A stretch of DNA of 64,000 nucleotides from contig CAZNOH010000001.1 of assembly GCA_964574655.1 (NCBI GenBank), positions 400,247 to 464,246 of the forward strand, in the 5' to 3' direction. The notes under the pieces were generated by a model. That model was not told the DNA's origin. It was given only the letters and a program-made list of their open reading frames with translations, and searched no databases. The stretch's first letter is position 1. The number at the start of each line of letters is the position of its first letter. The DNA comes from an uncultured Candidatus Saccharibacteria bacterium. Its GTDB lineage: Bacteria; Patescibacteriota; JABMPQ01; JAQVVF01. Shown one piece after another: positions 58,441 through 62,033 of the stretch. The position numbers were made by a program, and so were the translations under genes.

Positions 58441-60006
58441 ATGAAAAAAGCATTAATTGTTGGGATTGACGGCGGAACTTTTAGAGCTATAAAAAAATAT
58501 AGTGAAAAAGGTCTATTGCCTACTTTTAAATATTTATTAGAAAAAGGAAGTCATGGAATTTTAAAGAGCACTATTCCATTCTTGACTGTGCCAGCTTGGC
58601 CTTCTTTTTATACTGGTGTGAATCCTGGAAAACATGGTATTTTTCATTTCTTATCAACGCACAAGTTTAATCTTGAAGATAGAAAAATACATACTTTTTC
58701 AGATGTAAAAGTGAAGTCATTATGGAAAATATTGTCGGAGCAAGGAAAGAGATGTTTGGTCTGGAATGTACCTATGACTTACCCGCCTGAAGAAATTAAT
58801 GGAAAATTGGTTGGCGGATTATTGTCATTATCTTCGAGAAGATATGCGACTCCCCTTTCTTTCGAAGAAGAATTAAGAAAGCAAAATTATGTTATTGATT
58901 CAATGGAATTGAATTTACGCAATAAAGGCGGAGAAGAAAGATTTAAAGCAATGGTTTCGGTTGATAAAGCTCGATATGAAATTTGGAAAAAATATTATAC
59001 ATCTGAAAAATGGGATTTTTCGATGATTGTATTTCGTTGTTCAGATATTTGCGGACATGATTTTTGGCATGAAGAAGATAAAGTTATTAGAACTTATCAA
59101 ACTCTTGATAATTTGATGGGCAAAATTTTGAAATTAATGGATAATGAGACGGGATTATTTGTAATGTCTGATCATGGATTTAACGATTATAGCCAGACTT
59201 TTAATATTATGGCTTGGTTAAATCAGAATGGATATTTGAAATATGCAAAGTCAGAAATCAACGATGTTGTTTCAAAAGGTTGGCGTCAAGTTCATGAAAA
59301 GCAAGGTAATACTTCTTTGCTTCGTAAATTTTTTCACTTTATTAATTTTGATAGACAAAAATTATTCAAAAATAAGTTTATTGATAAATTTAGAAATATT
59401 ATGCCTAGATCAATTAAAAATATAATTCGTGAGAATATTCCACAATCAACTAAGACGATTGATTGGAAGAATACTACTGCTTATGCTCAATTAGGTGCAA
59501 AATCAACTTGGGGCGTAAATATTAATTTGATTGGTCGAGAGAATGACGGCGTTGTAAGCAAGGAAGACTATAATAAGTTAAGATCTGAAATAATTGATAA
59601 ATTAAGATTAATTACTGATCCAAATGGTGATAAAGTTTTTACTGATGTTATGACTTGCGAGGAACAATATCATGGAGATTTTATTGGTGAAGCCCCAGAT
59701 ATCCTTTTTAAAGTTAATGGTGAAAAGAGATTGGCTGTTGCTAGATTTGATGATAAATTGTTTGTTTCAACTACTTCGCATACAAATTCTTATCATGATC
59801 AAGATGGAATATTTATGTCATTGGGTCCTAATATTTTGGCTGGCAAAGAAATTGAGCCAATCAGTATTTTGGATATTACACCAACTGTTCTTGATTATAT
59901 GGGATTGCAAGTCCCAGAATATATGGACGGGAAGCCGGCAACCGAGATTTATAATATGAAATACAAGATTCCATTGAATCAGTTACAGAAACCGAATTAT
60001 AAATAA
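58441..60006 (+). CDS. Alkaline-phosphatase-superfamily protein (type I phosphodiesterase / nucleotide pyrophosphatase-like)
   Basis: N-terminus IVGIDGGTF...TVPAWPSFYTGVNPGKHGI is typical of this family. Central HD/MSDHG metal ligands. Confidence 0.55.
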   Translation: MKKALIVGIDGGTFRAIKKYSEKGLLPTFKYLLEKGSHGILKSTIPFLTVPAWPSFYTGVNPGKHGIFHFLSTHKFNLEDRKIHTFSDVKVKSLWKILSEQGKRCLVWNVPMTYPPEEINGKLVGGLLSLSSRRYATPLSFEEELRKQNYVIDSMELNLRNKGGEERFKAMVSVDKARYEIWKKYYTSEKWDFSMIVFRCSDICGHDFWHEEDKVIRTYQTLDNLMGKILKLMDNETGLFVMSDHGFNDYSQTFNIMAWLNQNGYLKYAKSEINDVVSKGWRQVHEKQGNTSLLRKFFHFINFDRQKLFKNKFIDKFRNIMPRSIKNIIRENIPQSTKTIDWKNTTAYAQLGAKSTWGVNINLIGRENDGVVSKEDYNKLRSEIIDKLRLITDPNGDKVFTDVMTCEEQYHGDFIGEAPDILFKVNGEKRLAVARFDDKLFVSTTSHTNSYHDQDGIFMSLGPNILAGKEIEPISILDITPTVLDYMGLQVPEYMDGKPATEIYNMKYKIPLNQLQKPNYK

Positions 60007-60013
60007 AGAAAGC

Positions 60014-60086
60014 GTAGAGACGTTGCAATGCAACGTCTCTACAACGATTATAAAATAAAAACTGGACGAGATTGTCCAGTTTTTTG
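60014..60086. terminator. Two consecutive hairpins (13-bp palindrome, then a 10-bp stem plus T-run): bidirectional terminator
   Basis: GTAGAGACGTTGCA-a-TGCAACGTCTCTAC, then AAAACTGGAC-gagatt-GTCCAGTTTTTT. Confidence 0.7.
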
Positions 60087-60093
60087 ATTTTTT

Positions 60094-60894
60094 TTATTTT
60101 TGGTAAATTTTGAGGTATTCTTTTTCGATTAGATTTTTCTTTTTTATCTGGTATAAGAAATAGAATTCTTTAATGATTATCAAGGAAGAAAAGAAAATTA
60201 GACCAGCTGTGATAAAAAATGTTTTATTAAAAATTAAAGTTATGATTAATAATATGCAAAAGATATTCATGTCATTTGGAAATTCGGAGATTGTTTTTAA
60301 TAATTTTTCAAATTTATTTTTAATGCTATTTCTTTGTTTTGGAGGCTGATATTCTTGTGGAAATTGCTTGTTTAAATTTTCATAATTATAAATTGGATTA
60401 TCTTTTTTGGTTGTTAAAAAAAGTATTCCTCGCATTAATGCATGTTTTGATGGCGAGATTAAAAAAACTGATAAAATTATTGCTAAATAGATTATCCAGA
60501 CGTCAAAAGTTTGGAAATAGATGAATAAGCTCAAGCTCCAATAAACTGCTGGATTGATTAAGACATGGCCGAATGAATCTAAAATCACGCCGAATAATGA
60601 TGATTTCTTTTTGTATCTAGCGACTTCCCCATCGACTAGATCAAAGATAAAAGATAATTGCATTAAAGCTATCCAAGCAATGATTCCTTGACGTTGCCAA
60701 ATAATTAATGATAATCCTGCTAGCCAAGCTAAAATTATTTGAATGAAAGTTAATTGATTTGGAGTGATAGGAGTATGGCAAAAAAACCAAGTAAAATAAA
60801 TTGAAAAATGGCGAGAAAAATAATATGCCCATGAATTATGGTATTTTTCTTTGTTTTTACGGCAAACTTTTTTTAGTTCTGAAATTTGAGGCAT
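60094..60894 (-). CDS. CDP-alcohol phosphatidyltransferase-family membrane enzyme
   Basis: DLVDGEVARYKKKSSLFGVILDSFGHV (DG..AR...G...D...D signature). Start taken at MPQISELKK; the longer ORF reaches 60960. Confidence 0.65.
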   Translation of the reverse strand: MPQISELKKVCRKNKEKYHNSWAYYFSRHFSIYFTWFFCHTPITPNQLTFIQIILAWLAGLSLIIWQRQGIIAWIALMQLSFIFDLVDGEVARYKKKSSLFGVILDSFGHVLINPAVYWSLSLFIYFQTFDVWIIYLAIILSVFLISPSKHALMRGILFLTTKKDNPIYNYENLNKQFPQEYQPPKQRNSIKNKFEKLLKTISEFPNDMNIFCILLIITLIFNKTFFITAGLIFFSSLIIIKEFYFLYQIKKKNLIEKEYLKIYQK

Positions 60895-60995
60895 TTTTAT
60901 GTTGTCATTTCGAGCGAAGCGAGAAATCCCGTTTGTTTTAGAATCTACGGGATCTTTCACTGCGGTTCGAGATGACAGATTTAAATAGATGGTTC

Positions 60996-62033
60996 CTAAA
61001 AACGGTGCAAAAATTTTGAATATATTGGAAGACTTGCATAATCATAAAAATCTTTGAATATTTTGCTGTTGCCTGGTTCAAGAATTATTTTATCTGGATA
61101 TCTTAATGATTCAAGCATTATTTTTCGGTCTTTTGCTAAAAAAACAACTTGCTTATTTTTTATACCGCGAACATTTTTATTGCTTGTTAATCCAATAATG
61201 AGCTTTCCATTTTTAGCAATTGATTCTTTAAGATTTTTAATTTTTGAAGCATGGCCCAAGTGAGGTAAATCATAGACTCCAGTATTCAAAACTCGGTTAG
61301 CTTTAGGAGCAATATATTTCTTGGCAAAAGGATTCAAAACATAAAATTTACCGCCAGCCTTTTTTTCAATTGCTTTGGCAGTTTTTAGATTAAATAGAAA
61401 TTCCGCTCCTTTTACAAGCAAATCAATTTTTTCATCAAAAACAAAAATTCCGGTTTTGTTCAAATTTTTAAATCCATCACCAATTCTGTTGAAATATAAT
61501 TTTAAAGAATTATTAATTTCTCCGCGATGAAAAGTAAAATCTTTTTTGTAGCATAGACCTTGATTGAGAATTTGTCCGATCTTTGTTAATTCTTCTTGTT
61601 GATATACTAAATTTTTATTGCAAAGTGCTTTTTTATAAAAGTCTTCTAATTGCTGATGCGTTTCTTTTATTATTTTTACTTTTATTGGATCTATTTTTTC
61701 AATAAAATCTAGATCTTCATCGCTTAGATAATTTTTGCCGTTTGTCTTTTTGAGTGTAGTTGTTGAGCCATGAGCAATTTTTGTTTCGTCATTAAAATCT
61801 TTATCTTCACAAATCAAGCCACGTTGTAGCCACATTGAATCAATAGCGCCTTGCTTTTTATTCATGAAATCTAGTGTTTTATTGACTGTCTTAGCATTAT
61901 ATTCATAGATGTATGATTCAGGCTGGCTATTTTTCTTTAAACATTTTTTTAATAATCTTAAAACAACTAGCTTGTTAAAAGCTGTTAATCTAATTTTATC
62001 TTTTATTAAATATTTGAAGAAAAATTTTAACAT
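60996..62033 (-). CDS. Two-domain protein with a C-terminal CTP:phospho-alcohol cytidylyltransferase-like (HxGH) domain
   Basis: GVYDLPHLGHASKIKNLKE (HxGH nucleotidyltransferase motif). N-terminal ~200 aa unassigned. Confidence 0.45.
   Translation of the reverse strand: MLKFFFKYLIKDKIRLTAFNKLVVLRLLKKCLKKNSQPESYIYEYNAKTVNKTLDFMNKKQGAIDSMWLQRGLICEDKDFNDETKIAHGSTTTLKKTNGKNYLSDEDLDFIEKIDPIKVKIIKETHQQLEDFYKKALCNKNLVYQQEELTKIGQILNQGLCYKKDFTFHRGEINNSLKLYFNRIGDGFKNLNKTGIFVFDEKIDLLVKGAEFLFNLKTAKAIEKKAGGKFYVLNPFAKKYIAPKANRVLNTGVYDLPHLGHASKIKNLKESIAKNGKLIIGLTSNKNVRGIKNKQVVFLAKDRKIMLESLRYPDKIILEPGNSKIFKDFYDYASLPIYSKFLHRF

Follow-up and report, generated by a model that had tools for sequence, protein, structure and literature searches.

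Membrane enzymes of the CDP-alcohol phosphotransferase family share eight signature residues (D1xxD2G1xxAR…G2xxxD3xxxD4) that have been called absolutely conserved; the fourth aspartate is likely to be the catalytic base, and its change to asparagine abolishes the activity of phosphatidylinositol-phosphate (PIP) synthase (PMC4634129). Related transfers in phosphonate tailoring, of the PntC, Fom1 and CDP-OH type, have been predicted and not characterised (PMC6697681, PMC8942020). Here we compare with these systems a locus from an uncultured Candidatus Saccharibacteria bacterium, situated in a stretch of 64,000 nucleotides (contig CAZNOH010000001.1, positions 400,247 to 464,246; hereafter the window). 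Three neighbouring genes of this locus encode a predicted membrane-bound CDP-alcohol phosphotransferase of 266 aa (60094-60894, minus strand), a soluble cytidylyltransferase (CTase)-like protein of 345 aa (60996-62033, minus strand) and an alkaline phosphatase (AP)-like enzyme of 521 aa (58441-60006, plus strand). Our literature searches found no description of this Patescibacteria module.

A sequence-only reading had assigned the three genes to the activation of an alcohol with CTP and its transfer onto a surface glycan or lipid. In its general form, that of a CMP-activated phospho-head group transferred by a CDP-alcohol-family membrane enzyme, this interpretation is partly supported by our results. 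All three open reading frames (ORFs) lie where it had placed them, and each scores above the gathering threshold of the expected profile (PF01066, 47.2 bits, E=4.2e-12, cutoff 22; PF01467, E=1.3e-7; PF01663, 125.8 bits, E=3.9e-36, cutoff 23). Judged from their residues, two of the three proteins are not textbook members of their enzyme families, and the most valuable lead to come from the locus is a widespread subfamily of transferases in which a histidine replaces the fourth aspartate. For the locus itself, we tentatively favour the reading, to which we give a probability of roughly 0.45, that the trio forms a clade-specific conserved module adding a small head group, linked by a phosphodiester (or phosphonate) bond, to a membrane-bound acceptor during envelope-glycan assembly.

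A histidine variant of the CDP-alcohol transferases

Aligned with AF2299 and PIP synthases, the transferase has the signature D85-x2-D88-G89-x2-A92-R93-x8-G102-x3-D106-x3-H110 (60565-60642), in which seven of the eight residues are kept (D85, D88, G89, A92, R93, G102 and D106) and the fourth aspartate is replaced by His110; the motif had previously been read as ending in G-x3-D-x3-D, and its last residue has to be corrected. This is no peculiarity of a single protein, as histidine occupies the position in 17 of 18 relatives (family alignment A2). The cytosine-binding motif P(D/N)xx(T/S) is also kept, as P45-N46-Q-L-T49 (60748-60762), with N46 and T49 nearly invariant in the same alignment, and the hydropathy profile shows hydrophobic stretches within residues 47-247, as would suit about six transmembrane (TM) helices.

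Species-representative genomes were scanned with a pattern that left out the fourth-aspartate position, and 80 loci were returned. Among 90 scan proteins with a recognisable motif, 65 have histidine and 7 have aspartate at this position, and their sources range over Patescibacteria, DPANN, Asgard archaea, Methanosarcinales/ANME, KSB1, Omnitrophota, Chloroflexota, acI Actinobacteria, SAR11 and SAR86. Against the NCBIfam equivalogs, the transferase of the window scores 52.4 bits with archaetidylinositol-phosphate (AIP) synthase (cutoff 180), 39.2 with PIP synthase (cutoff 170), 30.1 with pssA (cutoff 107) and 17.7 with pgsA (cutoff 109). Because these scores are so far below the cutoffs, the transferase does not group with the ordinary phospholipid synthases PgsA and PssA. 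Eight other His-type members likewise fall below all NCBIfam cutoffs, the best scores, with the window protein included, being 35-52 bits against cutoffs of 170-180. The histidine variant defines a widespread subfamily, none of whose tested members belongs to any curated NCBIfam family, and our literature searches found no characterised His-variant CDP-alcohol transferase.

Genes immediately adjoining those of this subfamily were counted at 55 non-redundant loci and include family 4 glycosyltransferases (GT4; 13 cases), Wzx-type flippases (12), methyltransferases (9), GT2 enzymes (6), NTP_transferase-type enzymes (6), a second CDP-OH gene (5) and HxGH cytidylyltransferases (4); no phospholipid family is among the 25 neighbour families listed. 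Within 3 kb of the His-type gene, a Wzx gene is found at 15 of the 55 loci and a nucleotidyltransferase at 31 of the 55, a figure with a high background, since NTP_transferase genes are common in glycan loci anyway. The neighbours agree with head-group transfer in the context of glycans, rather than of ordinary phospholipids, as had been supposed for the window.

Several individual loci provide support for a CMP-linked soluble donor and a surface-directed product. In glycan loci of SAR11 and SAR86, the gene directly upstream of the His-type gene encodes a canonical cytidylyltransferase of 140 aa that has GDDW and YTKGTSST motifs, and one archaeal-looking contig has, paired with the His-type gene, a cytidylyltransferase of 147 aa and an ABC importer of the phosphonate type. 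In fosfomycin biosynthesis, Fom1 cytidylylates 2-hydroxyethylphosphonate. A Saccharibacteria metagenome-assembled genome (MAG; L065, CAZJEQ010000003.1, 4296-8801) encodes a Fom1-like fusion of an HxGH CTase with PEP mutase, a TPP-dependent decarboxylase and an Fe-dependent alcohol dehydrogenase, followed by a His-type transferase, and we predict that these genes form the 2-hydroxyethylphosphonate branch (described in PMC8942020) of a surface-decoration pathway in a candidate phyla radiation (CPR) bacterium, which would be expected to make a CMP-phosphonate. At two further loci, a close relative of the transferase with asparagine at the fourth position lies by an NTP_transferase that is fused to an AP-superfamily Metalloenzyme/PhosphMutase protein (L006, 8745-10661) or adjoins one without being fused to it (L007, 3050-4966), both beside Wzx and pyruvyl-transferase genes; and loci of KSB1 and Deferribacteres (L015, L016, L020) have a phosphomutase-like gene within 3 kb. 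A partner from the AP superfamily therefore recurs in different forms.

Tandem pairs of CDP-OH genes were observed at L060, L066, L082, L083, L056 and L068, in acI/Nanopelagicaceae and other Actinomycetota (two of the records are labelled Bifidobacterium). In these pairs, the first gene is AF2299-like, codes for 360-388 aa and keeps the canonical fourth aspartate, and a His-type gene of 264 aa comes immediately after it.

A cytidylyltransferase half-domain behind an orphan region

The CTase-like protein, which has no TM segment by hydropathy, matches PF01467 over profile positions 3-65 of 133 only, whereas the canonical cytidylyltransferase partners of sister transferases cover positions 1-130. 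Likewise, the profile of its family aligns to the CCT, TagD/GCT and ECT structures only over residues 246-326, corresponding to residues 2-78 of the 129 of TagD, and a profile-profile alignment (hhalign) with the canonical N-terminal half gives E=6.8e-13. Alignments to PDB structures and profiles delimit a half-domain at residues 246-332 (61038-61298), which comprises beta1, H258-L-G-H261 (61251-61262), K286, K292, K294, R303 and Y312 and ends in helix alphaD; H258, H261, the three lysines, R303 and Y312 are invariant in the family (alignment A1). The GDDW and RTxGISTT motifs are absent from their canonical C-terminal place, both in the window protein and in the family alignment, and full-length members all end about 70-95 residues past HLGH, just after the equivalent of helix alphaD.

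The part of the domain that is present looks functional from its residues. Its designation as an HxGH cytidylyltransferase holds for the profile match and the invariant HLGH, but the sequence-only reading had taken the domain to be complete, and it contains only the N-terminal half of the fold. With the C-terminal half missing, the activation of the head group by LicC/TagD-type chemistry would be a proposal about a non-canonical protein and not a family assignment, although the general idea of a CMP-activated head group stands; LicC belongs in any case to another fold family (NTP_transferase).

In front of the half-domain lie 245 residues (61299-62033) for which an exhaustive phmmer search of 1.84 billion representatives matched the family's own representative only. 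The family is small, with 11 clusters among 5.8 billion proteins, and a scan of metagenome contigs with its profile found one true member and none that was new. The invariant motifs of this orphan region (A1) are W68-L-Q-R71, G89-S90, G99-x-N-Y-L103, F168-H169-x-G171, F199-D-E201, I203-D-L-L206, K208-G209 and G227-G228.

A circular permutation of the fold is suggestive only and does not reach significance (P about 0.06-0.09). Just upstream of beta1, where a permutation predicts it, residues 200-238 give the single best hhalign match to the profile of the canonical C-terminal half (P=0.085), which aligns IDLLVKGAEF…GGKFYVLNP with the canonical IDVFVMGDDW…EVVYLPR. The candidate displaced beta4-GDDW-beta5 unit would occupy residues 196-240 (61314-61448), but the score of the match is reached by 11 of 200 column shuffles and very nearly by a reversed control, and a search with a tandem-TagD hidden Markov model gave only a secondary match of -1.1 bit. 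Taken as strings, 'GSTTTL' at residues 89-94 and 'IDLLVKGAEF…KFYVLNP' at 203-235 are mere resemblances to the missing motif. A split enzyme was also considered and rejected: no ORF matching the canonical C-terminal half was found in the window or in the related contigs L001, L004 and L009.

Between the CTase-like and transferase genes lies a spacer of 101 bp (60895-60995, minus strand) that folds into a 75-nt imperfect hairpin (minimum free energy -30.6 kcal/mol, z=-6.1) and whose G+C content is above that of its surroundings. The hairpin is specific to this genome and absent at other loci; in relatives the two genes abut (in L009) or are separated by 8-59 bp (8 bp in L004). Because it has no T-run, the hairpin is not an intrinsic terminator; no Rfam family matches anywhere in 57-64 kb of the window, the spacer included, and no dispersed copies of the element were found. 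It is probably an inserted palindromic mini-element, and it gives rise to a spurious N-terminal extension of the mechanically called transferase ORF (288 aa), which starts at a GTG at 60960, whereas homologues support the ATG at 60894. The string 'SKTNGISRF' at the start of this longer ORF was considered as a displaced RTEGISTT, left by a frameshift or fusion, and was rejected because it is in another frame and inside the genome-specific spacer, and because homologues start at the equivalent of ATG 60894.

A conserved trio and its possible role

In the third protein of the trio, the metal ligands and nucleophile of Xanthomonas NPP have aligned counterparts in D10, T49, D202, H206, D244, H245 and H452; these catalytic residues are invariant in five homologues, down to a Woesearchaeota protein with 30% identity. 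It has neither a TM segment nor a signal-like N-terminus by hydropathy, and is predicted to be a cytoplasmic enzyme of the NPP/PafA branch. Against the PDB, its profile finds PafA, a monoesterase, at 2.4e-10, ENPPs at 5e-6 and weaker, iPGM at 2e-4 and PhnA at 1e-3, and the protein falls far below the cutoffs of all NCBIfam equivalogs. Assignment to the AP superfamily thus stands with all its catalytic residues, but the earlier label of phosphodiesterase is one option among several, because the solved enzyme closest to it is a monoesterase, with the ENPP diesterases ranking behind. The Woesearchaeota homologue lacks an insert of about 70 residues (about 272-345) in which basic residues are frequent.

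That homologue, of 460 aa, was observed in a Woesearchaeota MAG (L027, NZBG01000034.1, 2868-9987), where it is encoded on one strand with three genes without a Pfam match, a PHP phosphoesterase, a His-type CDP-OH transferase (about 4 kb from the AP-like gene) and a radical-SAM/SPASM gene.

The arrangement of a CTase-like gene, then the transferase gene, then a convergent AP-like gene is shared by the window and the three other long contigs of its clade (L001, L009 and L004), the four spanning 61-89% identity; the source records of the homologues read 'Patescibacteria group bacterium', which confirms a Patescibacteria origin for the window. The AP-like proteins of L001, L009 and L004 are 89%, 85% and 63% identical to that of the window. 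While the genes around it vary from contig to contig, the trio itself is kept, with the CTase-like gene always directly upstream of the transferase gene. In the window, the minus-strand unit begins with a GT2 gene (62033-63004; PF00535, E=3.5e-19), whose stop codon overlaps the start codon of the CTase-like gene (TAATG), and ends with the transferase gene. A GT2 or Wzx gene precedes the pair on the other three contigs as well, and on L004 the Wzx gene ends at the CTase-like start. The opposing plus-strand unit consists, in order, of a Wzx-type flippase (54532-55995), an AglJ-like polyprenyl-phosphate sugar synthase of the GT2 family (56148-57092), a GT4 (57198-58307) and, as its last gene, the AP-like enzyme; the first three types occur beside the trio also on L001, L009 and L004. 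Between the two units lie convergent hairpin terminators (60013-60084); their stems comprise 14 and 11-12 pairs, and T-runs follow them on either strand. Hence the trio is a module in the sense of a conserved neighbourhood, and not, as the word might imply, a single transcription unit.

On L004 (Patescibacteria MAG122, JBFLZX010000003.1, a relative at 61% identity), CysD-like (PAPS_reduct) and CysN-like (GTP_EFTU) genes, together with a second, short Phosphodiest-family gene (238 aa), lie directly beside the trio (14042-16968), and the short paralogue is also found at the edge of L001. The sulfate-activation genes hint at sulfation of the same glycan.

If the trio modifies an envelope glycan, its first step may be the joining of CTP to a phospho- or phosphono-alcohol by the soluble 345-aa protein, giving CDP-X (or CMP-X), in which the HxGH/Lys-rich half-domain would act while being completed in some way by the orphan 245 residues. 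Family chemistry and context suggest that the six-TM transferase would then bind the cytidine nucleotide through P-N-x-x-T and D-x2-D-G-x2-A-R…G-x3-D and move P-X to a hydroxyl of the acceptor, with His110 serving as general base in place of the fourth aspartate; the acceptor would most likely be a polyprenyl-linked glycan intermediate or a glycolipid at the cytoplasmic face, before flipping by Wzx. For the AP-like enzyme we can only speculate that it might strip a leftover phosphate from the product, by analogy with the PGP (phosphatidylglycerol-phosphate), PIP and DIPP phosphatases that act after related transferases with phosphorylated acceptors, or might free a phospho-alcohol from a scavenged phosphodiester.

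A number of observations weigh against this reading. Since exchange of the fourth aspartate for asparagine is enough to kill PIP synthase, His-variant proteins could differ in chemistry, and the known six-TM members of the family use soluble acceptors, a poor fit to a lipid-linked glycan (PMC4634129). The CTase activity is only assumed, because half of the canonical fold, including the RTxGISTT motif, is missing; neither a significant permutation nor a separately encoded C-terminal half makes up for it in the contigs searched, and the AlphaFold2 models are of low confidence (pLDDT 41 for the full protein and 39 for residues 186-345). The AP-like gene belongs to the opposite transcription unit, converging on the other two genes, and outside the four clade contigs a Phosphodiest partner was found in one other lineage only, that of L027. 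The count of nucleotidyltransferases near His-type genes has the background noted above, and there are no choline, inositol or glycerol-phosphate supply genes among the genes of the window.

Alternatively, the locus could serve the synthesis or remodelling of membrane phospholipid head groups, with chemistry like that of phosphatidylinositol, phosphatidylglycerol, phosphatidylserine or phosphatidylcholine, either by a CDP-choline/CDP-ethanolamine route on scavenged diacylglycerol, or from CDP-diacylglycerol and a phosphorylated alcohol with subsequent dephosphorylation by the AP-like enzyme. The low equivalog scores argue against such a role, as do the placement of the transferase in one unit with a GT2 (or Wzx) gene, the flippases and glycosyltransferases that flank the subfamily as a whole, and the absence of CdsA, acyltransferase and decarboxylase genes both from the window and from the subfamily's commonest neighbours. 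These points leave the phospholipid route unlikely in our view, even though the best NCBIfam and PDB relatives of the transferase are AIP and PIP synthases, DIPP synthase and AF2299, its six-TM size matches that of phospholipid synthases (PMC4634129), the PGP and PIP routes typically include a phosphatase, and the CDP-OH genes of Burkholderia phosphonate clusters are predicted to make phosphonolipids (PMC8942020).

It is also conceivable that the CTase-like protein is not a working nucleotidyltransferase at all, but a degenerate partner that binds CTP or CDP or has a regulatory or scaffolding part, in which case the His-variant transferase would obtain its donor elsewhere or perform another reaction, and the AP-like gene would be a mere neighbour. 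The incomplete fold, the want of a complementing ORF or a significant permutation, the failure of AlphaFold to model even the HxGH part with confidence and the orientation of the AP-like gene would all be accounted for. We nonetheless consider this quite unlikely: HLGH, the lysine cluster and the R-Y-x-D region are invariant down to 55% identity, a pattern suggesting maintenance of a catalytic site, the CTase-like gene keeps its place immediately before the transferase gene, and a bona fide nucleotidyltransferase lies near most other His-type loci, often adjacent to the transferase.

Synthesis of a soluble phosphodiester, such as a di-myo-inositol-phosphate or diglycerol-phosphate compatible solute, in which the membrane enzyme condenses CDP-X with a phosphorylated alcohol and the AP-like phosphatase dephosphorylates the product, would use a nucleotidyltransferase, a CDP-OH transferase and a phosphatase candidate as its three steps and would suit both the monoesterase PafA as best solved relative and the closest structural relatives of the transferase (DIPP synthase and AF2299, which take soluble substrates and have the same six-TM build; PMC4634129), but it is very improbable given the translational coupling to a GT2 gene, the placement among Wzx, GT4 and polyprenyl-phosphate sugar synthase genes in four genomes, the association of the whole subfamily with flippases, and the failure to find inositol-phosphate synthase or glycerol-phosphate dehydrogenase genes nearby.

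Transfer of a head group to an envelope-glycan acceptor is thus the reading that we retain for the trio. A broader claim has two parts: that the His-for-Asp4 transferases are an unrecognised bacterial and archaeal family which furnishes lipid-linked glycans with phospho- or phosphono-head groups taken from CMP-linked donors, and that the CTase of this clade was remodelled into a new architecture of HIGH-motif nucleotidyltransferase, either through circular permutation or because an orphan domain took the place of its C-terminal half. We regard it as doubtful that both hold together. If true, the existence of the His-for-Asp4 family contradicts the view that all eight signature residues are invariant, and any member offers a test of whether histidine can replace the proposed aspartate general base, just as the half-domain CTase offers a compact test case for the rebuilding of a Rossmann-like nucleotidyltransferase. 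His-variant transferases recur in phosphonate clusters and in glycan loci across many uncultured bacterial and archaeal lineages; one characterised member would annotate the whole subfamily. Reliance on a host for lipids as well as many building blocks is assumed for the Patescibacteria, whose envelope chemistry is almost undescribed; a conserved head-group module would be one of the few concrete predictions about their surface, and a phosphodiester head group would affect surface charge, attachment to the host and recognition by phages.

Surroundings of the locus and relation to known systems

The trio lies within a long envelope-glycan region that occupies 38-64 kb of the window, the part up to about 38 kb consisting of housekeeping genes (among others NrdD, a ClpB-like ATPase, PriA, GltX, CTP synthase and ribosomal protein L9). 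In addition to the genes of the two units, the glycan region contains a DUF4012 protein, several GT2 enzymes, a Wzy_C protein (43016-44617), a HAD hydrolase, a PMT_2/GT-C enzyme (48865-50808), an NHL-repeat protein and, at the end of the window, a GT-C-like membrane protein; Pfam and NCBIfam matches identify the Wzy_C and PMT_2/GT-C proteins as well as the Wzx, AglJ-like and GT4 genes, and the glycan neighbourhood that had been described for the three genes is borne out. The genetic code is the standard one (table 11), an alternative code having been rejected because the long ORFs and stop-codon usage fit that table, and no tRNA genes were found in the 64-kb window.

Four further features of the window were recorded. 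The GT-C-like gene (63075-64000, plus strand, extending past the window end) diverges from the GT2 gene of the minus-strand unit and encodes a polytopic membrane protein with a 'GRDDASY' loop after its first TM helices. The NHL-repeat protein (52164-54446, minus strand, 760 aa) has a signal-like N-terminus, many NHL/beta-propeller repeats and a C-terminal TIG/IPT domain, and is probably a surface protein. At 11870-16849 (plus strand), adjacent genes of 514 and 475 aa each end in a PEP-utilizers mobile domain and are followed by a 250-aa gene without a Pfam match and a separate 319-aa PPDK_N (ATP-grasp nucleotide-binding) gene, which together look like a split or duplicated PEP-synthase or phosphotransferase-like system. 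Finally, a 273-aa protein with a cytochrome b5-like haem/steroid-binding domain (811-1632, plus strand), a domain that seems unusual for a Patescibacterium, is encoded next to a NUDIX hydrolase and the anaerobic ribonucleotide reductase pair NrdD/NrdG.

Set beside the systems described so far, the locus combines shared chemistry with departures in each of its enzymes. PntC, the Fom1 fusion of CTase with PEP mutase and the 'Burkholderiales_CDP-OH' clusters likewise bring together a cytidylyltransferase and a CDP-OH-family membrane transferase for a cell-surface product; because no PEP mutase, decarboxylase or phosphonate transporter gene is present in the window, a phosphonate head group is not indicated there. 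With the NPP/PafA branch, of which PafA and the ENPPs are its best PDB relatives, the AP-like enzyme shares the ligands of the bimetallo-site and the position of the threonine nucleophile, but it is predicted to be cytoplasmic and its similarity to characterised members is very distant.

The CTase-like protein has in common with TagD/GCT, CCT and ECT the beta1-HxGH-alphaA-beta2 unit, the Lys-rich loop and the R-Y-x-D strand beta3 (E=1e-7 to PDB structures and E=7e-13 between profiles). The counterpart in those enzymes ends with TagD residue 78, and the orphan region that precedes the half-domain is an addition of this family. As for the transferase, the solved CDP-alcohol phosphotransferases (AF2299, IPCT/DIPP synthase, and the PIP synthases RsPIPS and M. 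tuberculosis PgsA1) share with it the PF01066 domain, about six TM helices, D1xxD2GxxAR…GxxxD3 on the equivalents of TM2 and TM3, and P(D/N)xx(T/S) at TM1 (PMC4634129). They differ from the window protein and its subfamily in having aspartate where these have histidine, and in their setting: the solved enzymes serve the synthesis of lipids or solutes, whereas the His-type genes stand in a context of glycan assembly.

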